The notes below the pieces were generated by a model. The model was given only the letters and a program-made list of their open reading frames with translations. It did not search any database and had not been told where the DNA came from. 64,000 bases of DNA from a virus, in the IMG/VR virus record IMGVR_UViG_3300023174_004998, positions 1 to 64,000 of that record; one strand, given 5' to 3'. The position numbers were made by a program, and so were the translations under genes. Positions 1 to 11,433 of the stretch are shown here, piece by piece. The stretch's first letter is position 1; every line of letters begins with the position of its first letter.

Positions 1-195
1 ACACTACTCATCGGCTACTGCCATTTGATTGTTCGGCAATGTGTTTGGAGATACAGAGTGTTTCCACTCTGTAGATAGGGTTATACCCTACCCAGTAGTT
101 TTATCATCTGCGTTATCGCCACAGACTTCATCGTACTGTCCGCCCGTTTAGAGCATGTTTTGAGTGCGCTCTAGGACCTCGTTTCCTATCAACAC
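1..195 (-). ncRNA. Putative structured non-coding RNA downstream of the attenuator (runs off window)
   Basis: No ORF. Minus-strand hairpins: TAGAGC..GCTCTA, CAGTA..TACTG enclosing TCTGT..GCAGA, TAGGGT-ATA-ACCCTA (76-90), and perfect TACAGAGTG-GAAA-CACTCTGTA (52-73) with a GNRA loop. Confidence 0.45.
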
Positions 196-204
196 TTTGC
201 TCGA

Positions 205-384
205 TTATCGATCGGTGTGCCAGACTGGGCATGTAGCCCTGGCATCGATTTCTTTTCGAGCTCGATCTATCTTGCCTTGAAGTAATTGTTGCATACCATG
301 TTCATCTAGGACAAACCCACTATGCTCAAATGCTTGTTCGACAACTCGATCGGCAATTTTACTGTAATCAATTTTTTCTGTCAA
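205..384 (-). CDS. Small hypothetical protein, 59 aa (MTEKIDYSKIADRVVEQ...), not in ORF track
   Basis: TTG start preceded by AAGGAAAAA SD-like sequence; open to TAA at 205-207. Confidence 0.55.
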   Translation of the reverse strand: MTEKIDYSKIADRVVEQAFEHSGFVLDEHGMQQLLQGKIDRARKEIDARATCPVWHTDR

Positions 385-404
385 CTTCTATTTTTCCTTT
401 TGTA

Positions 405-442
405 TAAAACAGAAACCCCGGAGTGTTTAGTTCCGGGGCTCT
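405..442 (-). terminator. Intrinsic terminator of the attenuator
   Basis: CCCCGGA-ACTAAACAC-TCCGGGG followed by TTTCTGTTTT on the minus strand. Confidence 0.75.
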
Positions 443-468
443 GTGTAGAATAAGTTACTGTCTGACTT

Positions 469-585
469 CTACTCAGAACCCCTGACCCCGATCGCATCAT
501 TACGTAGGCAGGTGGGGTGCCACACGAGACTTGTTGGCTCCATCTGCTTAAATGATATCGAATAGGATCTTAAAGTTTTCATCAT
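469..585 (-). CDS. Putative attenuator leader peptide, 38 aa (MMKTLRSYSISFKQMEPTSLVWHPTCLRNDAIGVRGSE)
   Basis: ATG about 7 nt after a -10 box; its stop codon lies inside an antiterminator arm complementary to the terminator 5' arm. Confidence 0.6.
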   Translation of the reverse strand: MMKTLRSYSISFKQMEPTSLVWHPTCLRNDAIGVRGSE

Positions 586-592
586 AGTATCT

Positions 593-621
593 ATTGTATA
601 GGTTTATTTATACTGCGTCAA
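593..621 (-). promoter_or_regulatory. Sigma70-type promoter with embedded T4-like late promoter TATAAATA
   Basis: TTGACG-17nt-TACAAT; TATAAATA (605-612) lies in the spacer. Confidence 0.75.
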
Positions 622-643
622 CCTCGGGTTTGCCTTTTTACAA

Positions 644-677
644 CAAAAAACCCTACACAAGGTAGGGTTTTTGTTTT
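644..677. terminator. Intrinsic (probably bidirectional) terminator after the dctP-like gene
   Basis: AAAAACCCTAC-ACAAG-GTAGGGTTTTT inverted repeat with A/T tracts on both sides. Confidence 0.75.
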
Positions 678-690
678 GCTTGTCTACCTA

Positions 691-1647
691 TCAAGCCTTT
701 TTGATGCGTTCAATGAGATTGTCACCAAAAGTTGATTCAAACTCATCATACACCACTTGCATACGAGCTTTCATGTCTGCTGTTTCTTCAGCAGTGGGTT
801 CGTATACACTCTTGCCTTCGCTGATCAAACGGTCACGAGCTTGTTCGCCATCAACGATGGTAGTCTGACGCTCATTGCGACCTGCTTGGATAGCGGCTGT
901 CTTGATCACAGCACGAACTTCGTCGCTGAGGCTGTCCCAGAAACGATCACCAATGATCATTGTGGTCAAGAACAAACTGTGTTTGCTGTCTACCACTGAC
1001 TGGATTACGTCATTCTGGCTCAATGGATAGATACGGCTATAAACTGTGTCATTGCCGTTGCAGTTACCGTTGGCAACATGCTCACGTGCTTCTTCTGTTT
1101 CGCACACAAATGGCTCAACACCACTCATGGTACGGATCACAGCACGACCCACTGGGTTACGATTTGAACGCAGTTTTTCACCAGTCAAATCACTCAATGT
1201 GCTCACTGGCTTGTTTACGCCCAAGCAACGGAAGCCGCCTGAGTATGTGTAAGCAAGTCCACGAACATTGCTGTTGTCTGTGAGTTTGGCCAACAATGTT
1301 TCGCCAACTTCACCTTCCAACACACGGCTAGCATGCTCATGGTCGCTGAAAATATAAGGCATTTCAAACGCCAAGAAGTCATGTTCATAGTGTTCAGCCA
1401 ACCAAGTGGTGTACATTTGACTCATTTCGATTTTGCCAGCTTCCATCAAGTCTAACAAATCGTGCTTGGTAACCACAATGCCATCATTATACTTGGCACT
1501 GTATTCATTCAGCGTCATTACTTCAATTTCAATTTTTTCGGCTGATTGTTGTGCATTGATTTCTTTTTCAAAATCTTGTGCGGCACGTACAAACAAGCTC
1601 AATGGTTCGTGGGCTATAACCCAACGAATTTTAGTTGTTTTGCTCAT
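691..1647 (-). CDS. TRAP-type substrate-binding protein (DctP family), no signal peptide
   Basis: FEMPYIFSDHEHASRVLEGEVG, GGFR, DLTGEKLRS, FWDSLSDEVRAVIKTAA motifs typical of DctP; N-terminus is not hydrophobic. Confidence 0.8.
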   Translation of the reverse strand: MSKTTKIRWVIAHEPLSLFVRAAQDFEKEINAQQSAEKIEIEVMTLNEYSAKYNDGIVVTKHDLLDLMEAGKIEMSQMYTTWLAEHYEHDFLAFEMPYIFSDHEHASRVLEGEVGETLLAKLTDNSNVRGLAYTYSGGFRCLGVNKPVSTLSDLTGEKLRSNRNPVGRAVIRTMSGVEPFVCETEEAREHVANGNCNGNDTVYSRIYPLSQNDVIQSVVDSKHSLFLTTMIIGDRFWDSLSDEVRAVIKTAAIQAGRNERQTTIVDGEQARDRLISEGKSVYEPTAEETADMKARMQVVYDEFESTFGDNLIERIKKA

Positions 1648-1677
1648 TTTAAATGAACTCCTGTTTAACTTAATATT

Positions 1678-1788
1678 GCTTGCGATAAATCGCGTACGGA
1701 CGGCGTTCTAGGCATATCATGCTAGTAAAAGGGTAAACTACCCTAGGCGTCTTTGTATCCGGCGTCGATCACCTGACCGGCGCTGCCA
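1678..1788 (-). ncRNA. Riboswitch-like cis-regulatory RNA, copy A (5' UTR of dctP-like gene)
   Basis: Same conserved cores (GCARCGCC, GACGYCGG, GACGCCT, ACGCC, CCGTA, AGC) and the same four-hairpin layout as 2737-2850. Confidence 0.65.
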
Positions 1789-1791
1789 TTT

Positions 1792-2706
1792 TTATTTATC
1801 CAACACAACACCTTGTGTTAGACGTTTCCATTGCACTAACTGTGAATTAAACCAGTTGTCCAACTGTGCGTCGGGCATTTGATTGTTGGGTACACAGTTG
1901 TCAGCGGCATTGGCATCGCGTACACTTTGAGCACGACTAGCTTCTACCAGTACTTTACGTATGCTGGCAAAGCGGTCTTCGCTGAGTTTACGGCTGGCAA
2001 AAATCTGCTGTGGTGTGCTCATATCCAACAAGTCCTTGCTAAAACCTTGATTGGCCAGCAATTCTGTGCCTTTGATGCTGTTGCGGCCAGTTTGCCCAAG
2101 CCAATACACTTGTTTAGCAGATCCAGGACCTGTGTACTGTTCGCTGTCACCGTGGAATCCCACTGAAAAATCCACTGATCCGTTGAGTACGCCCAGCAAA
2201 GCTTCGCTGGTGCTCTTGAATGGTACGATGTTTAAATTGGGGTAATTTTTAGCAATTTGAATACTGACCAAATGTGTAGTAGTTCCCATGCCGCTCATGC
2301 CAATTGATAGCTTGGCATCTTTGGGCACTTCTTTCCAGTTTTTGTATTTGACACTGCTGATCACAAACGGGCTCACACACATAGGCAGGATGCTACGAAA
2401 ATCCGCCATGCTGTGGCTGTCATTTGGGAACAAGTTGGGTCGAATAAATCCAGCAGAACTGTTGATCCACAGTGTGTTTGTGGGATTATTGTTGGTAAAG
2501 TTTGCGGCCACAGTACCTCCAGCGCCTGGCTTGGTGTCAAACAAAAATGTGTATTGATTCTGTAATTTGTTTGCTTCAGCAACCAAGGCTCGGTAGAAGT
2601 TGGCTGCATTGTCACCAGCACCCCAACTATAAGCCAGTGTGATGGATTCTTTTGCTACTGCGTTGATACTTAAAGTTGCCAATAAAATGGCCATGAATTT
2701 TTTCAT
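1792..2706 (-). CDS. Tripartite tricarboxylate transporter substrate-binding protein (Bug/TctC family)
   Basis: Signal peptide; KPGAGGTVA, SGMGTTTHL, VPFKSTSEALLGVLNGSVD motifs. Confidence 0.8.
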   Translation of the reverse strand: MKKFMAILLATLSINAVAKESITLAYSWGAGDNAANFYRALVAEANKLQNQYTFLFDTKPGAGGTVAANFTNNNPTNTLWINSSAGFIRPNLFPNDSHSMADFRSILPMCVSPFVISSVKYKNWKEVPKDAKLSIGMSGMGTTTHLVSIQIAKNYPNLNIVPFKSTSEALLGVLNGSVDFSVGFHGDSEQYTGPGSAKQVYWLGQTGRNSIKGTELLANQGFSKDLLDMSTPQQIFASRKLSEDRFASIRKVLVEASRAQSVRDANAADNCVPNNQMPDAQLDNWFNSQLVQWKRLTQGVVLDK

Positions 2707-2736
2707 GTTAATTTTCCTTTTTAGTTTAGTTTGGCA

Positions 2737-2850
2737 GCTCGTAGAGAACTCTACATACGGTATGGCGTCAACAGTGTCTACACTGATAAAGGATTGATTT
2801 CTCCAGGCGTCATTAAATACACCGACGTCAACATGATGTTGGCGTTGCTA
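2737..2850 (-). ncRNA. Riboswitch-like cis-regulatory RNA, copy B (5' UTR of Bug gene)
   Basis: Homologous to 1678-1788, with different hairpin sequences that keep base pairing. Confidence 0.65.
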
Positions 2851-2875
2851 GATTTTACTTAGTACAGTCCCGATA

Positions 2876-3805
2876 TCAACGTAATTTTTCTATGCCAGCC
2901 TGCTGTCTCACAGCTTCCCAGCGTTGGTATTGGCGCTGTATCCACTGTTCAGGATCTTGCACTGGACGACCCAGTTCTAATCCCAGGGCCTGCACACTGT
3001 TTCTGTAGGCTTCGCTTTCATTGAGACTGCGCAAAGTATTCAGCATCAATGCTTTGTCTCTCAGTGGAGTGTCTTTGCGCACAGCTACACCGTACCAACT
3101 GTAAAAACTAAATCCAGGAAGCACCTTTGAAAACAGTGTAGCTGACGGCACAGCAGGATTTGGAGAGTCGCTACTCACTGCCAATATTTTTAACCGGCCG
3201 CTGTTGTGAAATTGCAGTTGGCTTTGTATTGTGTCAAAGCTACACTCAATGGTGCCACTCATCAAGGCAGTGCTGACTTCACTGGCGCCTTTGAAGTTCA
3301 CGATTTCTACTTGTGTAAGACGCAGTTGTGACACCACATACTTGGTCAAAAACAGTGCTCCACTGTTGCTGACTCCGCAGTTGATGGGTTTGGTTCTGGC
3401 TTGTTTTATAAAATCCTGGAAGCTGGTGATACCGCTCTGGTTGCTGACCACTAGCACACTGGGACTTTGTGTCATAGGCAACACCATGTCAAAGTCTTTG
3501 ATTTGGTAACCAGGATCTTGATAAACCACATGATTAAACAAAAATGGCCCTGTGGCTGCCATCAACCAGGTATTGCCATCAGCTGGACGATCCAACACAT
3601 AGCGCACACCAACTCTGGCATCAGCGCCTGGTTTGTTGACCACTATTGTAGATATTTTGCTGTCTTCTTGCAGATGTTTTTGTATTATCCGTGCAAACGA
3701 ACTGACTACACCGCCGGGTGCATAAGGGCTGACCAGTTCTTTGACATCATTGGCCTGTGCTGACATGGCCATCAGTGCTGTAACTAATGATAGAATAAGT
3801 TTCAT
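2876..3805 (-). CDS. Second Bug/TctC-family substrate-binding protein
   Basis: Signal peptide; PYAPGG, VVNKPGA, PADGNT, FKGASEVSTALMSG, GRLKILAVSS, WYGVAV motifs. Confidence 0.85.
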   Translation of the reverse strand: MKLILSLVTALMAMSAQANDVKELVSPYAPGGVVSSFARIIQKHLQEDSKISTIVVNKPGADARVGVRYVLDRPADGNTWLMAATGPFLFNHVVYQDPGYQIKDFDMVLPMTQSPSVLVVSNQSGITSFQDFIKQARTKPINCGVSNSGALFLTKYVVSQLRLTQVEIVNFKGASEVSTALMSGTIECSFDTIQSQLQFHNSGRLKILAVSSDSPNPAVPSATLFSKVLPGFSFYSWYGVAVRKDTPLRDKALMLNTLRSLNESEAYRNSVQALGLELGRPVQDPEQWIQRQYQRWEAVRQQAGIEKLR

Positions 3806-4335
3806 AAAAGTCCTTTGGTTGAATTAAGATTTATCTGTAGCGTGACACGGATATCAATTAAATCTTCCACGCTGTGCGGATATCTTCCGTCAACAAGATA
3901 CCAGCAACCTTGAGGTGTATCCACGCGATTTTCAGCAGTCAACTGATCGTAATTGTCAAACAGCTGACCTCGTGATTGATCTAGGTCATGGTTGGCTGCA
4001 GACCAAAATTGCAAATATCCATTGGCTGGATCAATCACGTGTAGCAGTGCATAATCACGTGTGGCATCACAGTGTGGACCGTGGCAGTTCATTCCAGTAC
4101 TGCCATATTGATATCTCATACCTATTTTGTCAATGTCCGCAGATATGTGAGCATGAACCCAATTGATAATGTCTTGATTGGCTTGATAAAAGCAACCGTG
4201 AGATGTGGTCTGTGGTTGATTGTTTCTAGTAACAACCCGCCCGGGAAACTGTCGAATCAACTCTGCCTGATCAGGATCATAGGTAGAATATACAGATTCA
4301 GGCAAAGTAGGAAAGTCAAAGAACTTTACTTGCAT
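3802..4335 (-). CDS. Putative 2OG-Fe(II) oxygenase/cupin-fold protein
   Basis: HxD (PHCDATR), distal H (YPHSVE) and R (IRVTLQI). Confidence 0.5.
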   Translation of the reverse strand: MQVKFFDFPTLPESVYSTYDPDQAELIRQFPGRVVTRNNQPQTTSHGCFYQANQDIINWVHAHISADIDKIGMRYQYGSTGMNCHGPHCDATRDYALLHVIDPANGYLQFWSAANHDLDQSRGQLFDNYDQLTAENRVDTPQGCWYLVDGRYPHSVEDLIDIRVTLQINLNSTKGLL

Positions 4336-4337
4336 GA

Positions 4338-5522
4338 TTAGAATTTAAAATGCAAATTGGTTCCTGGATCTTCAAAGTCTGCTTCACCTAGATAGTAAAA
4401 GGGACTGATAAATCCCACCAGGCCCACCGGACGACCCATTTCATTGTTGAAGAACTTGGGATCAATGTTGTCTGTGAGATATCGCAAACCGCTCTGCCAC
4501 ACACGATACGCATGAGTTTCTCGGAAGTTGACATAAAACCAGTAGTCCATTTCATTGTAGAAACTGTTGGTAGGTTTGGCAGTCTGGAATGTTGTAGGAT
4601 CATAATCAGGGTAAATCAAGGGCTTGACAATGTGTTCAAAAGCTGTGCGTTGTGTAAAGTTATAGTTGGGCCAACGTACCAGATGTTGTAGATATTTGTT
4701 GGTTTCAAGATTAAACCAGTTCTTGATCACATGAGCTTGTTTGATTATCATTTCTGGCAGATCAGGGCTCCAAAAAAAGTATTCGTTTGAAGCATTGGTA
4801 TAGCCAGCAAGATCTGGGTTGGCAGCATTGGCCTGTATGTCCATGAAATATAGATACCACTTTTTATCCTTGACGCAGACCTTGGGCTTGTCTACTCCCC
4901 AAAGTACACACACTCGCAGACCTTGGTCCAGTGTGCGTTTGTGATCGTCCACAGCATCTACAGTGTGTTTGAAAGGATGCCCTGGTTGAAAGTAATCTCT
5001 GGTTTTAAACACCCAAGACTCATCGTGCGTACTGACCAGCATGTCTTCGCTGTAGTCATGTATGGTGATTTTGGTTCTAGGGCTTTGCACAGATATCCAG
5101 TTTAACAATGGCAAGGCCGCATATTTTGCTTCACTGAGAGTGTTTTCAGGCTTGGTGTTGAAAGGGTCGTCGGCTACATTCTTTTCACCAGTTTTGGGAT
5201 AACGAAATACCACTTCATCTAAGTGTATGCCATTGTTGATAAAAGCATAGGCCACTGTGGCCGAGTCCGCGCCGCCGGAAAATTCCAGTCTGATATAGTC
5301 ATAACGGTCACGGATCTGTTGTGCTCGCATACGATACAGATTTTGTAAATCAGTACCAGGCTCAATGGAAGCATCTAAACTGGAAAATAATTCTTGGTTG
5401 AAATTCCACTGTGGGAATTCACCGGTAGTAGTGGCTTCTATCAAGGCTTCGGGTTTTGAATAAAACCTTTTTTGACCTACTGTGTAGAAACCTAATTTGG
5501 GATTTTGTTCTAGGAGATTCAT
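4338..5522 (-). CDS. PP-loop (adenine nucleotide alpha-hydrolase-like) ATPase, unknown substrate
   Basis: LEFSGGADS PP-loop and GVDKP motif; lacks the C-terminal QueC zinc-binding Cys cluster. Confidence 0.6.
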   Translation of the reverse strand: MNLLEQNPKLGFYTVGQKRFYSKPEALIEATTTGEFPQWNFNQELFSSLDASIEPGTDLQNLYRMRAQQIRDRYDYIRLEFSGGADSATVAYAFINNGIHLDEVVFRYPKTGEKNVADDPFNTKPENTLSEAKYAALPLLNWISVQSPRTKITIHDYSEDMLVSTHDESWVFKTRDYFQPGHPFKHTVDAVDDHKRTLDQGLRVCVLWGVDKPKVCVKDKKWYLYFMDIQANAANPDLAGYTNASNEYFFWSPDLPEMIIKQAHVIKNWFNLETNKYLQHLVRWPNYNFTQRTAFEHIVKPLIYPDYDPTTFQTAKPTNSFYNEMDYWFYVNFRETHAYRVWQSGLRYLTDNIDPKFFNNEMGRPVGLVGFISPFYYLGEADFEDPGTNLHFKF

Positions 5523-5561
5523 GGCAGAGTATTTAAACGCTGGCCTCTGCCATGAATAGAT

Positions 5562-6074
5562 TTAGCTGTTGAGAACACGAGCAACCGAAGTGATCACAGC
5601 CGCAATACGACCAATGTCGCGAAGTTGTTCTACAGTGTAGCCTTCCTTCTTGAGAGTTTCGTAGTGCGCTTTTACGCAGAAGTGGCACTTGCCAACGATA
5701 CTGGCAGCTAGACTGTAGCTCTCAAATCGAGCCTTGGTCGTTCCACCATGAGAGCTAATAGCATTCATGCGTAGTTGTGCTGGCAAACCAGTGAGACGCT
5801 CGTCTTCAGCCATTTCAACATAGGGATACCATACATTGTTCATAGCCATTAAACTAGCGGCTGTCAATGCCGCATCTCTTTCAGTGGCATCTTCCAGGTC
5901 TGACTGTATAAATGTAACGAGTTTGCCATTGCCTGTTGCCATAGCGGCTGCGAGAGCACAGCCATTGGCTTCAACAAGATCAAGAGTGCTACGATTGACA
6001 ACGCTGTCAAGATTGAGACGTGTGTCTTTTGCATAGTCTGGCAATGCCTCCTTTATTGTATCTACCCAACTCAT
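5562..6074 (-). CDS. ahpD: Alkyl hydroperoxide reductase AhpD
   Basis: LPDYAKDTRLNL, MAMNNVWY, CHFCVKAH; translationally coupled to ahpC. Confidence 0.92.
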   Translation of the reverse strand: MSWVDTIKEALPDYAKDTRLNLDSVVNRSTLDLVEANGCALAAAMATGNGKLVTFIQSDLEDATERDAALTAASLMAMNNVWYPYVEMAEDERLTGLPAQLRMNAISSHGGTTKARFESYSLAASIVGKCHFCVKAHYETLKKEGYTVEQLRDIGRIAAVITSVARVLNS

Positions 6075-6613
6075 TACAGAGTCTCTCCACCCACAGAACG
6101 ATTACAAGCACAGAGTTCACCAGTTTGTAGCGCATCTAACACACGCAATGTTTCTTCTGGGCTACGACCCACGTTCAAATTGTTCACAGTGACGTGTTGG
6201 ATAACGTTGTCTGGGTCAACGATAAAAGTGGCGCGAAGTGCGGCACCTGCTGGCGCATAGAATACACCCAGCTGATTGATCAAGCTCAACTCACCACGCT
6301 GTGTATCAGCGAACTGATAATGTGTGATCTTTTGTAGATCTGGATGTGCTTGTTGCCAGCTCACTTTGCAGAACTCATTGTCTGTTGAACCTGTAAGCAA
6401 CACAGCATCACGGTCTTCGAAGTCTTTGGCTAACTTGTCGTATGCCACGATTTCTGTTGGGCATACAAATGTAAAGTCCTTTGGATAGTAAACGATCACT
6501 TTCCACTTGCCTTCGTATGACTTCTCCGTGATGTCAAAGAATGCATCTTTTGGTTGTCCTGGACGGACTCCAGTCAATGCAAATGCCTCTAATTTATCTC
6601 CTACTGTTTTCAT
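6074..6613 (-). CDS. ahpC: Peroxiredoxin AhpC
   Basis: YPKDFTFVCPTE, RATFIVDP, VGRSPEETLRVLDALQ, resolving LCAC. Confidence 0.95.
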   Translation of the reverse strand: MKTVGDKLEAFALTGVRPGQPKDAFFDITEKSYEGKWKVIVYYPKDFTFVCPTEIVAYDKLAKDFEDRDAVLLTGSTDNEFCKVSWQQAHPDLQKITHYQFADTQRGELSLINQLGVFYAPAGAALRATFIVDPDNVIQHVTVNNLNVGRSPEETLRVLDALQTGELCACNRSVGGETL

Positions 6614-6668
6614 AACTTCTCCTTAGTGTTAAAAATTTGACAGCTCTCAGTGTTTCTACTGATGCTTT

Positions 6669-6754
6669 ATTGTAATAGTATGTATCAATGAAATCAAGCG
6701 ATTTAATAGATTTTTCCAGAATATTTTTTAATATCGATTATAGAAAAAATCAAT
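6669..6754 (-). promoter_or_regulatory. ahpC promoter with upstream OxyR-like binding site
   Basis: TTGATT-17-TACAAT (6669-6697); ATAG-N7-CAAT (6740-6754), TAAT at 6729 in 11-bp phase, further ATAG at 6706. Confidence 0.6.
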
Positions 6755-7304
6755 AATCCTCGCTGGCATCAGTGACCACTGCCCAACCTAACTGTAACAG
6801 ATCATCACGTACTTCGTCTGTTACTGTGCCTTCGGGCACCAATTCTTCAGGCAGAACTTCATCATAACTCATACCCCCGCGAATACCACTACAGTACCAA
6901 TCAATGTAGTCACCTTGACCACGCATGTCAGCAATGATACCTCCGGCATAACGCCAGGAGCAAGTGTACTTTTGATCTTTGAGCACGGGCCAGACATCCT
7001 GGCGTTGAAAGTCATTGTTGCACAAGGCCGCATAGAGATTCTGAGCATAGCTCTCGCTGACACGAACTTTCTCTACAATCCAATCGGTGCTTCTTAAATC
7101 GTATTCAAGATTGTTTTTCTGCCACTCAGGGTCAGCCTCTTGTTTTTCAGATTCTTCAGTCCAAGAATCATACCAATGGATCATGGCCTGCACGTCTGGA
7201 TCGTCTAGGCTACAGCCTTCTTCTAGTTTGCGCTTGACGTAGGAATCACGCTGAAACGTGTTTCTTTCTGAGCTTGCGCTGAGGACGGGTTTCTTTTGAT
7301 TCAT
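6750..7304 (-). CDS. Hypothetical phage protein
   Basis: ORF with SWRYAGGIIA..DYIDWYCSG; start taken at MNQKK. Confidence 0.6.
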   Translation of the reverse strand: MNQKKPVLSASSERNTFQRDSYVKRKLEEGCSLDDPDVQAMIHWYDSWTEESEKQEADPEWQKNNLEYDLRSTDWIVEKVRVSESYAQNLYAALCNNDFQRQDVWPVLKDQKYTCSWRYAGGIIADMRGQGDYIDWYCSGIRGGMSYDEVLPEELVPEGTVTDEVRDDLLQLGWAVVTDASEDY

Positions 7305-7512
7305 TGCGTTCTTTGAACTCTTTTGAGACATAGTATTCTATCAGTCGTTGTTGGATCATGGACAACAGTTCACCTTGTTCGTCTACAACAAAACGCACCG
7401 GGCACCGACCCCAGGTAGAATATTTTTGGAATTCGGCAAACCAACGTCGATGCTGTTTGTTGGTAGCATCAAATACCACCCAGGGTCGACCCCAGTGTTC
7501 CAGTCTACTCAT
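7246..7512 (-). CDS. Hypothetical protein
   Basis: ORF overlapping neighbours in operon fashion. Confidence 0.55.
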   Translation of the reverse strand: MSRLEHWGRPWVVFDATNKQHRRWFAEFQKYSTWGRCPVRFVVDEQGELLSMIQQRLIEYYVSKEFKERNESKETRPQRKLRKKHVSA

Positions 7513-10616: not shown

Positions 10617-11162
10617 TTAACTTTTACACTTGAGCAAATTCAGCAAGTCTTGATATGTCAAGGTCTGTATGAGATAGTTATCCAAATGTACTTGTAGCGT
10701 TTCTGCGTTGATGTGAAACTGCCCTTCACCTACATTGCCTTTGTGCTGTTTGTTGTTGTAGCCAATGGTATCGTTGATCTTGTCTGGAGTGATGCGAAAA
10801 ATCTTGATGCAGTCATCAAAGAACAAACCATAGTAAAGAACTTCAAACTCAGACTTTTTGACCTGCTGTATATTGCACCAAAAATCATGCTCTTTCCAGT
10901 TCTTGAATTTTACGGCACGGTTGGCACTGGCTTCTGCGGCAATGCTTTCCAAGATATTGCTTTCTGTGATGGGAGTCAAGCTCTGTCGCACCGTGGAGAA
11001 TTTGACTTCTATGCGTTGGTTCAGCGTGGTATCAAATAAATCGTGAAAGATGTTTTTACTCTTATCCAGGCTCTTGATCAATTTGATCATGACTTCGGCT
11101 ACTTTGCCAAAGCGACGTGTGTTGAGTAAAAATATACCTTGTTTGAGTTCTTTTGCTGTCAT
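10617..11162 (-). CDS. Putative PD-(D/E)xK nuclease-fold protein
   Basis: GKVAE...HDLFD...RIEVKFS spacing. Confidence 0.4.
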   Translation of the reverse strand: MTAKELKQGIFLLNTRRFGKVAEVMIKLIKSLDKSKNIFHDLFDTTLNQRIEVKFSTVRQSLTPITESNILESIAAEASANRAVKFKNWKEHDFWCNIQQVKKSEFEVLYYGLFFDDCIKIFRITPDKINDTIGYNNKQHKGNVGEGQFHINAETLQVHLDNYLIQTLTYQDLLNLLKCKS

Positions 11163-11163
11163 T

Positions 11164-11433
11164 TTAAATCTCCAGTTCTCTGGCCTGTAGCTTGATCCAA
11201 GTTAGTTCTTTTGTATGTATCTTTTCATGCACATCGCGGCCATGCATTCTAACCAACACAGCACCATTGGCGTTTTCTAACCATATGCGAGTGGCATGCT
11301 CATAGCATTGTCCGTGCAAGGTGCGCTGATATTGGGTACTGAATTCAGGGTGATACCCACGCTGGATAGCATAGCGAGTGGGCTTGTCAAACATCTTCAT
11401 TCCCTCAGGAAATTCATAATAGTAATCAATCAT
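11164..11433 (-). CDS. Hypothetical protein
   Basis: Coupled ORF. Confidence 0.5.
   Translation of the reverse strand: MIDYYYEFPEGMKMFDKPTRYAIQRGYHPEFSTQYQRTLHGQCYEHATRIWLENANGAVLVRMHGRDVHEKIHTKELTWIKLQARELEI

Follow-up and report, generated by a model that had tools for sequence, protein, structure and literature searches.

Solute-binding proteins of the TctC/Bug and DctP families have carboxylates as ligands (PMC5812351, PMC4646407). In TRAP binding proteins, it is an arginine that makes the binding specific for carboxylates (PMC4646407). In beta-proteobacteria, the majority of Bug genes lack tctAB next to them; the products of these orphan genes, which also bind carboxylates, presumably draw on a small set of shared permeases or have a signaling role (PMC5812351). 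A phage-encoded periplasmic binding protein or transporter part, such as the cyanophage pstS product or the tctA product on contigs of SUP05 phages, is thought to plug into host uptake while the infection lasts (PMC6359870, PMC4164917); phage tctA has been mentioned only as an unexplained auxiliary gene (PMC4164917, PMC6359870), and phage auxiliary uptake genes have hitherto been known mainly as single genes, for example, pstS. Among enzymes, AsnB-class amide and lactam synthetases adenylate a carboxylate and then form the amide or lactam. An AsnB-like enzyme works with a 2-oxoglutarate (2OG) oxygenase in the carbapenem and clavam pathways. Here, we analyze a 64-kb stretch of viral DNA (the window), which is the first 64 kb of the 96.5-kb IMG/VR contig IMGVR_UViG_3300023174_004998 (CheckV completeness, ~26%). 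A module of five genes at positions 691 to 5522 of this window encodes a PP-loop ATP pyrophosphatase, a 2OG/Fe(II) oxygenase-like protein, two exported TctC/Bug solute-binding proteins (TctC1 and TctC2), and a DctP-family binding protein that has no signal peptide. What is new here is a structured leader RNA that is real, is restricted to one genomic island, and has target genes that unify the module. Neither phage TctC/DctP cassettes nor this leader RNA were described in the papers searched, and a megablast search with the region gave no match.

The initial annotation, made without database searches, had mentioned a duplicated RNA together with the module. This RNA proved to be a conserved structured leader of ~125 nt that ties the module genes together. 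The intergenic regions before the TctC2 and DctP-like genes share a pattern that recurs upstream of the binding-protein genes of relatives, and a covariance model finds exactly two copies in the contig, both on the minus strand: copy A, in the 5' untranslated region (UTR) of the TctC2 gene (2720 to 2851; 85.8 bits, E = 1.4e-21), and copy B, in the 5' UTR of the DctP-like gene (1660 to 1789; 93.7 bits, E = 7e-24). A TAAATA box lies 5 to 8 nt upstream of the leader. The sequence AGCARCGCC opens hairpin P1, which is closed by GACGYCGG; a three-base helix (CGG/CCG) then encloses hairpins P2 and P3, with joining strands GACGCY, UUUAC, and AACGCC that are almost invariant, and hairpin P4 follows, and then AGC. 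RNAalifold recovers P1, the closing helix, P2, and P3. Across 42 distinct leader sequences, 98.8% of the cells are paired, compared with 25 to 60% when the partners are slid; compensatory changes occur in 13 of 16 pairs and are seen in P1 to P3, and the covariation score was reached by none of 500 shuffles. An independent set of 45 distinct sequences, kept outside model building, is 99.3% paired, with a slid-partner range over both sets of 25 to 63%. P4 is present in 73 of 75 leader sequences, with 41 different stem pairs.

The leader is thus a covariation-supported structure upstream of functionally related genes, as is expected of a riboswitch-type element. Like the elements that control transporter genes, it consists of several helices conserved in a 5' UTR, its stems covary and its junction nucleotides are conserved, and it stands before uptake genes. 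Unlike known riboswitches, it has no match in Rfam 15 (a scan of positions 1 to 7500 with E values up to 5 gave three weak unrelated matches, none of them inside either leader), it lies behind a phage TAAATA box, and it carries four RACGYC repeats, which are compatible with a protein-binding operator. The leader could equally be such an operator or a riboswitch. No terminator is present in the leader; hairpins that could hide the Shine-Dalgarno sequence are found 3' of P4 in some copies and are absent from others. The upstream box was also compared with T4-type late promoters. There is a single exact TATAAATA in the window, a number not above chance expectation, and we therefore call the conserved element only a TAAATA box. 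A shortened leader variant (~105 nt) is present in L014, L022, L025, L026, L051, and L057 among the loci of related phages. It lacks the CGG/CCG closing helix and P4 and keeps P1 to P3 and the ACGCC strands; it represents a natural minimal form that could help to define the functional core.

The distribution of the leader provides the strongest evidence for functional unity of the module. In relatives with genomes of 210 to 357 kb, it is found in one or two copies per genome and only inside the island described here. A strict sequence pattern matched 87 stretches in IMG/VR, of which four fetched without a TAAATA box gave no match to the model and look like chance occurrences, and >120 stretches in metagenome contigs, with model hits in 41 of the 80 that were fetched; the hits to the model in the three sets analyzed number 48, 59, and 41. 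We then took a census of the first gene downstream, which yielded 70 distinct proteins. DctP-like proteins are the largest group (36 of 70), none with an N-terminal hydrophobic stretch, followed by TctC-like proteins (14 to 15 of 70). The others include three SBP_bac_8 proteins, three porins, three members of the PP-loop family (further truncated ones exist), and one each of TctA, an NMT1-like binding protein, a TauD-like oxygenase, and a hexapeptide acyltransferase; the remainder have no family assignment and mostly carry signal peptides. The metagenome set repeats this pattern and adds four PP-loop genes, one oxygenase of the 177-amino-acid (aa) type encoded in the window, and one radical-SAM-like protein. 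Every gene type of the module thus stands directly behind the leader in some phage, the DctP-like and TctC-like genes most often, and this evidence is independent of adjacency to the conserved PP-loop gene. NCBIfam gives no substrate assignment for the diverged SBP_bac_8, NMT1-like, and TauD-like targets. Among the leader targets are also a protein with a radical-SAM-like CxxxCxxC start (L174:3067-3189) and a family of ~300 aa beginning MIYxFGCSxCKW, found in three contigs (L190, L206, and L221).

All five open reading frames (ORFs) of the module lie on the minus strand, at the initially annotated coordinates, and the gene identities were borne out, including those of the two proteins that have no Pfam match. 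TctC1 (309 aa; 2876 to 3805) and TctC2 (304 aa; 1792 to 2706) both score above the PF03401 gathering cutoff of 27 bits and both carry an export signal. TctC1 does so with 81 bits and a signal peptide that ends at AQA, followed by ND; a search of bacterial genome representatives found no relatives of it. TctC2 is only just above the cutoff, with 30.4 bits, which sets it apart from the bacterial orphan Bug/TctC proteins, and it is the TctC type kept across relatives. Like the orphan Bug proteins of beta-proteobacteria (PMC5812351), the phage proteins are exported PF03401 proteins without adjacent tctAB; unlike them, they are phage encoded, lie beside PP-loop enzymes, and often stand behind a dedicated structured leader.

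The DctP-like protein (318 aa; 691 to 1647, minus strand) matches the full PF03480 domain with 137.9 bits. It also matches NF037995 (104 bits; cutoff, 50) and falls below the cutoff of TIGR00787 (94.6 versus 175 bits). In an alignment with solved DctP proteins, its R160, in a G-x-K-x-R motif, falls on their K-x-R arginine, and 18 of 20 phage homologues have it; R160 is probably equivalent to R147 of SiaP. The protein thus combines a family match with the carboxylate-binding arginine, and its best solved relatives bind C4-dicarboxylates, isethionate, or uronates. The likeness to TRAP DctP/SiaP proteins (PF03480; PMC4646407) extends to the full domain and the arginine, whereas the phage clade differs in having no signal peptide throughout, no DctQM in nearly complete genomes, and, in one sub-lineage, a split gene. 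A search for DctM gave nothing in this contig or in five relatives, two of which are at least 98% complete. Both Bug proteins have signal peptides of the textbook type and the DctP-like protein has none, just as their N-termini had originally been read. The DctP-like protein opens at the first strand of the mature domain, with its start 8 nt behind an AGGAG Shine-Dalgarno sequence, and there is no in-frame start codon in the 20 open codons upstream from which a signal peptide could be made. The same division holds among relatives: a hydrophobic N-terminal stretch is absent from 36 of 36 leader-associated DctP-like homologues and present in 13 of 14 leader-associated TctC-like proteins. Because it has no signal peptide, the DctP-like protein is expected to be cytoplasmic. 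DctP-like homologues of 316 to 319 aa are numerous in metagenomes, and cultured phages yield weak matches only (20 to 25% identity, in short unannotated records); in the NCBI record of a related uncultured phage, the homologue is automatically annotated as a periplasmic component.

In the sub-lineage with the split gene, the DctP-like protein is encoded by two overlapping ORFs of ~156 and ~162 aa (L021 to L023, L025, L026, L028, L033, L037, L051, and L057; for example, L022:10226-10696 plus 10693-11181). The break falls just before the G-x-K-x-R arginine, and both halves are open across many samples; in L025, the C-terminal half is even present twice. The arrangement has the look of a true fission of a binding-protein gene.

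A cytoplasmic binding protein could act on its own, as a sponge or sensor that sequesters a metabolite of the host or else a signal, immune or regulatory, that bears a carboxylate, with the leader tuning its dose. Such a role fits a DctP-like protein that is always signal-less, keeps the ligand-clamping arginine, is the commonest leader target, and is present in two or three copies in some loci, and it fits the lack of DctQM in nearly complete relatives. However, genes for exported binding proteins, porins, and TctA stand behind this leader too, an indication of nutrients and not of immune signals, and no known defense or antidefense genes were seen nearby. We regard the sponge or sensor as quite improbable.

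The PP-loop protein (394 aa; 4338 to 5522, minus strand) was assigned from its FSGGADS motif and its predicted fold. It has no match in Pfam or PHROG. Sequence searches of the Protein Data Bank with the queries P0001, P0002, and profile A1 returned nothing meaningful. The motif occupies residues 81 to 87, after a strand (residues 76 to 81) of the predicted model, and G84, D86, and S87 are invariant across 40 members of the family. An AlphaFold2 model built from a 40-sequence alignment (predicted local distance difference test score [pLDDT], 91.6) has the SGGxDS loop opening a Rossmann-like alpha/beta domain, and all of its fold matches are PP-loop enzymes. The best are AsnB-class amide and lactam synthetases, with which the SGGxDS loop and the synthetase-domain fold are shared over ~290 residues (Z = 11.6 to 8.4): E. 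coli AsnB (1ct9; Z = 11.6 over 290 residues, root mean square deviation [RMSD] of 5.2 Å, 10% identity), human ASNS (10.2), beta-lactam synthetase (1jgt; 9.8), TsnB9, and carbapenam synthetase (1q15), the last of which provides the top Foldseek matches. Generic PP-loop enzymes score Z values of ~7 to 8. In structural terms, the modeled protein reads as a member of the asparagine synthetase B class. In sequence it departs from that class: identity is ~10%, there is no Asn_synthase Pfam match, and no N-terminal Ntn glutaminase-type domain is present, only ~60 residues preceding the PP-loop domain in the model.

The PP-loop family is large, with 1,512 clusters at 50% identity, and 0 of 40 sampled members have a Pfam match. 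No close relative was found among bacterial genome representatives, and the collection of cultured phages gave no match; the Atlas neighbors are all viral. The family thus appears to be viral only, which is a further difference from the AsnB class. The contig L060, which carries a distant PP-loop paralogue, also encodes a short RF-1/PCRF-domain protein resembling peptide chain release factors (L060:4971-5525, minus strand).

The substrate of QueC (CDG) is a carboxylate, and the phage protein might instead replace QueC, or be another nucleic-acid-modifying enzyme, and serve a phage 7-deazaguanine pathway. Matches to QueC models are weak and confined to the PP-loop motif (TIGR00364, 12.9 bits versus a cutoff of 150; PF06508, 14.2 versus 22), and 38% of the members of one Atlas neighbor cluster have the QueC Pfam family; a PF06508 search of the 96.5-kb contig found no canonical QueC. 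The structural match to QueC, however, has a Z of only 6.5 versus 11.6 for AsnB, several paralogues per locus are unlike the single role of QueC, and the neighboring genes encode transport proteins rather than queD, queE, or dpdA. A PF01702 search for TGT/DpdA gave no match in five relatives but none in this contig either, and does not bear on the question. We regard a QueC-like or other nucleic-acid role as highly improbable.

The 177-aa protein encoded next (3802 to 4335, minus strand) has no Pfam match, and few relatives of it were found. H88-x-D90, H154, and R163 are invariant in six homologues of 24 to 87% identity. Its model, of moderate confidence (pLDDT, 68), is a double-stranded beta-helix that matches the 2OG oxygenases ALKBH6, HalB, and lysyl or prolyl hydroxylases with Z values of 8 to 9.4, and its structural neighbors in the Atlas include viral clusters with PF13640. 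The HxD...H triad and the modeled beta-helix, with R163 as the probable basic residue for the C5 carboxylate of 2OG, together point to a 2OG/Fe(II) oxygenase. In L008 to L010, L018, and L020, the PP-loop gene is followed at once by the gene for another kind of 2OG oxygenase (256 aa; weak PF13640 match), and the 177-aa type was found in L027, L034 to L036, and L047. The phage pairs of PP-loop protein and oxygenase mirror the pairing of an AsnB-like enzyme with a 2OG oxygenase in carbapenem and clavam biosynthesis.

Conservation of the neighborhood in related phages was assessed in a viral scan with the PP-loop protein, which returned 54 loci of 57 to 81% identity. The module genes do co-occur: PP-loop, TctC-like, and signal-less DctP-like genes are found together in ~40 of these 54 giant-phage loci, and in most loci long enough to judge, TctC2-like and DctP-like genes lie directly downstream of the PP-loop gene. 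The TctC2-like homologues next to the PP-loop gene are 41 to 92% identical and always have a signal peptide, and the DctP-like homologues downstream of it are 36 to 93% identical and never have one. The island is a mosaic: one to four PP-loop paralogues (27 to 53% identity) are interspersed with TctC-like and DctP-like genes, of which there are one to three each. A distant PP-loop paralogue (30% identity), on an unrelated contig of 40 kb, is again followed by a TctC-like gene. Of two viral scans that started from a distant family member, one returned a single locus and the other none. Islands of other relatives hold ABC-type and NMT1-type binding proteins, and outer membrane proteins (Porin_4 and Gcw_chp; L030 and L004) are also encoded. 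TctA is encoded inside the island in G001/L006, L038, and L141, one 89%-complete relative having such an island TctA; L006 and L038 carry TctA together with an exported 270-aa protein, and L006 additionally encodes two methyltransferases and a major facilitator superfamily (MFS) protein that matches the metabolite/H+ symporter family TIGR00883 with 387 bits. The giant-phage contigs that encode full-length outer membrane porins with signal peptides (Porin_4/Porin_1) or a Gcw_chp protein include L030:11240-12160, L088:8801-10000, L072:4777-5940, and L004:12089-12829. Some of these phage-encoded porins stand directly behind the leader RNA, and their N-termini look to us, presumably, like those of beta-proteobacterial porins.

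The system was originally proposed to be self-contained, and this did not hold: the module is one configuration of a variable uptake island, in which some relatives carry TctA, an MFS permease, and porins. The description of the module as an orphan stood in part. Neither TctA nor DctM membrane partners were found in the 96.5-kb contig, but for Bug proteins this is unremarkable; orphan status is normal for them and does not by itself argue that the function is unusual. For this genome, moreover, the absence of partner genes is weak evidence, since the contig is ~26% complete and the module lies only 690 nt from its end. Relatives reach 317 to 357 kb, so that the contig must be a fragment of a giant phage.

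The five genes had also been thought to end in a single terminator. A hairpin with a T run, resembling an intrinsic terminator, is indeed present 3' of the DctP stop codon (646 to 672, minus strand; an 11-bp palindromic stem between A and T runs) and closes the module, but two internal leaders, each with a promoter-like box, precede the TctC2 and DctP-like genes, and the module does not form a single simple operon. Leader copy A is directly preceded by a promoter-like site, TTGATA-16-TAAAAT (2852 to 2879, minus strand), a consensus match only, which agreed with the consensus at 10 of 12 positions in our scan. In copy B, the TAAATA box shares sequence with the stop codon of TctC2. Nearly all long ORFs of the window are on the minus strand, and those for the PP-loop protein, the oxygenase, and TctC1 overlap end to end.

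Many relatives have an element of a different kind between the DctP-like and TctC2-like genes: the hairpin that terminates the DctP-like gene has a perfect TTGACA in its loop, and TATAAT follows 17 nt later, just before TctC2 (L009:5640-5690, L010:4965-5015, L011, L012, L015, and others). Terminator and consensus sigma-70 promoter are thereby combined in a single element. To judge by these sequences, TctC2 may be expressed early by the host polymerase and DctP from the TAAATA box and leader. The PP-loop gene itself has no recognizable Shine-Dalgarno sequence; a TTTAAATA box ends 7 nt before its ATG (window positions 5523 to 5545, minus strand), and its mRNA could be leaderless, or the gene could be read through from ahpD, 39 nt upstream. 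The latter belongs to a pair of genes, ahpC and an ahpD-like gene (CMD family), that adjoins the PP-loop gene at positions 5562 to 6613; the pair recurs near the PP-loop gene in L022, L023, L025, L026, L033, L056, and L057 at 71 to 91% identity.

The carboxylate-binding nature of the TctC and DctP families, the retention of R160, and the resemblance of the PP-loop protein to a carboxylate-adenylating class share a carboxylate theme, and given this theme, the simplest model is a cassette that captures, imports, holds, and converts an organic acid. We accordingly propose, at somewhat less than an even chance of being right, that the module is a leader-regulated phage cassette for organic-acid uptake and small-molecule conversion (amide formation), one configuration of a variable island in a lineage of giant freshwater phages. 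Exported Bug proteins would capture the organic acid in the periplasm during infection, and the acid would be delivered through host TctAB or, where present, through a phage TctA or MFS protein. The cytoplasmic DctP-like protein would bind the acid or the product, as a sink or a carrier; the PP-loop enzyme would adenylate the carboxylate and convert it to an amide or lactam, which the 2OG oxygenase may then tailor. The leader RNA, as a riboswitch or a protein-binding operator, would set the amount of uptake proteins made. Compared with the pstS and tctA cases, such a cassette would be distinguished by what the island holds: binding proteins of several families, one of them cytoplasmic, together with linked enzymes and a cis-regulatory RNA dedicated to the set.

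Several observations weigh against this proposal. The similarity of the PP-loop protein to AsnB is at the level of the fold only (RMSD of 5 Å at the low identity given above). Neither TctA nor DctM was found in two nearly complete relatives (100% and 98%), and uptake there would depend on the presumed docking to host permeases. The module genes have separate promoters, and a perfect sigma-70 promoter takes the place of the leader before TctC2 in many relatives. Since the leader targets span at least five binding-protein families as well as porins, a general nutrient-stress signal fits as well as a single ligand. Finally, the PP-loop orthologue (59 to 81% identity across loci) is far better conserved than the binding proteins, lacks the leader, and has no binding proteins nearby in L040/41, L048, L049, and L056; it could thus be a core gene beside an insertion hot spot.

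These last observations suggest that there may be no pathway at all. The PP-loop protein would then be a conserved core gene product with an unrelated job, for instance, in protein or nucleic acid modification, encoded beside a hypervariable spot; the binding proteins would be independent host-derived auxiliary genes, each boosting a different nutrient via host permeases; and the leader would be a general regulatory or stabilizing cassette copied along with such genes. The free variation of the neighbors of the PP-loop gene is as expected from this arrangement, as is a leader that precedes TauD-like and acyltransferase genes in addition to those of the binding proteins and porins; the island is bordered by stress and nutrient genes (ahpC and ahpD, in this contig and in L022 to L026), and orphan Bug proteins are the norm in beta-proteobacteria (PMC5812351). 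On the other hand, PP-loop paralogues and an oxygenase of the 177-aa type are themselves direct targets of the leader, the PP-loop paralogues are interleaved with binding-protein genes, a distant paralogue is also found beside a TctC-like gene, and nothing in this reading explains why all 36 of 36 DctP-clade proteins lack an export signal. A set of unconnected genes is the main rival to the cassette and, in our judgment, rather unlikely, though it deserves serious consideration.

The leader-regulated uptake and conversion cassette can also be stated in a bolder form. The leader would be a new riboswitch class, confined to giant freshwater phages, that senses the imported acid or the amide product, and the DctP clade would be the first TRAP-family binding protein put to use within the cell, where it would serve a new viral family of AsnB-like amide or lactam synthetases as a high-affinity sink or as a carrier of substrate. 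We consider this form unlikely to be correct as a whole. If true, it would describe a pathway of the phage's own for sensing, importing, trapping, and converting a metabolite. In the island itself, a whole uptake set, a cytoplasmic TRAP-type protein, and a very large viral enzyme family are linked by one dedicated structured RNA. The conserved signal-less DctP clade challenges the assumption that TRAP binding proteins are periplasmic only. The effector of the leader, once identified, should indicate what these abundant lake phages take up or make and should also give a function to two uncharacterized abundant protein groups.

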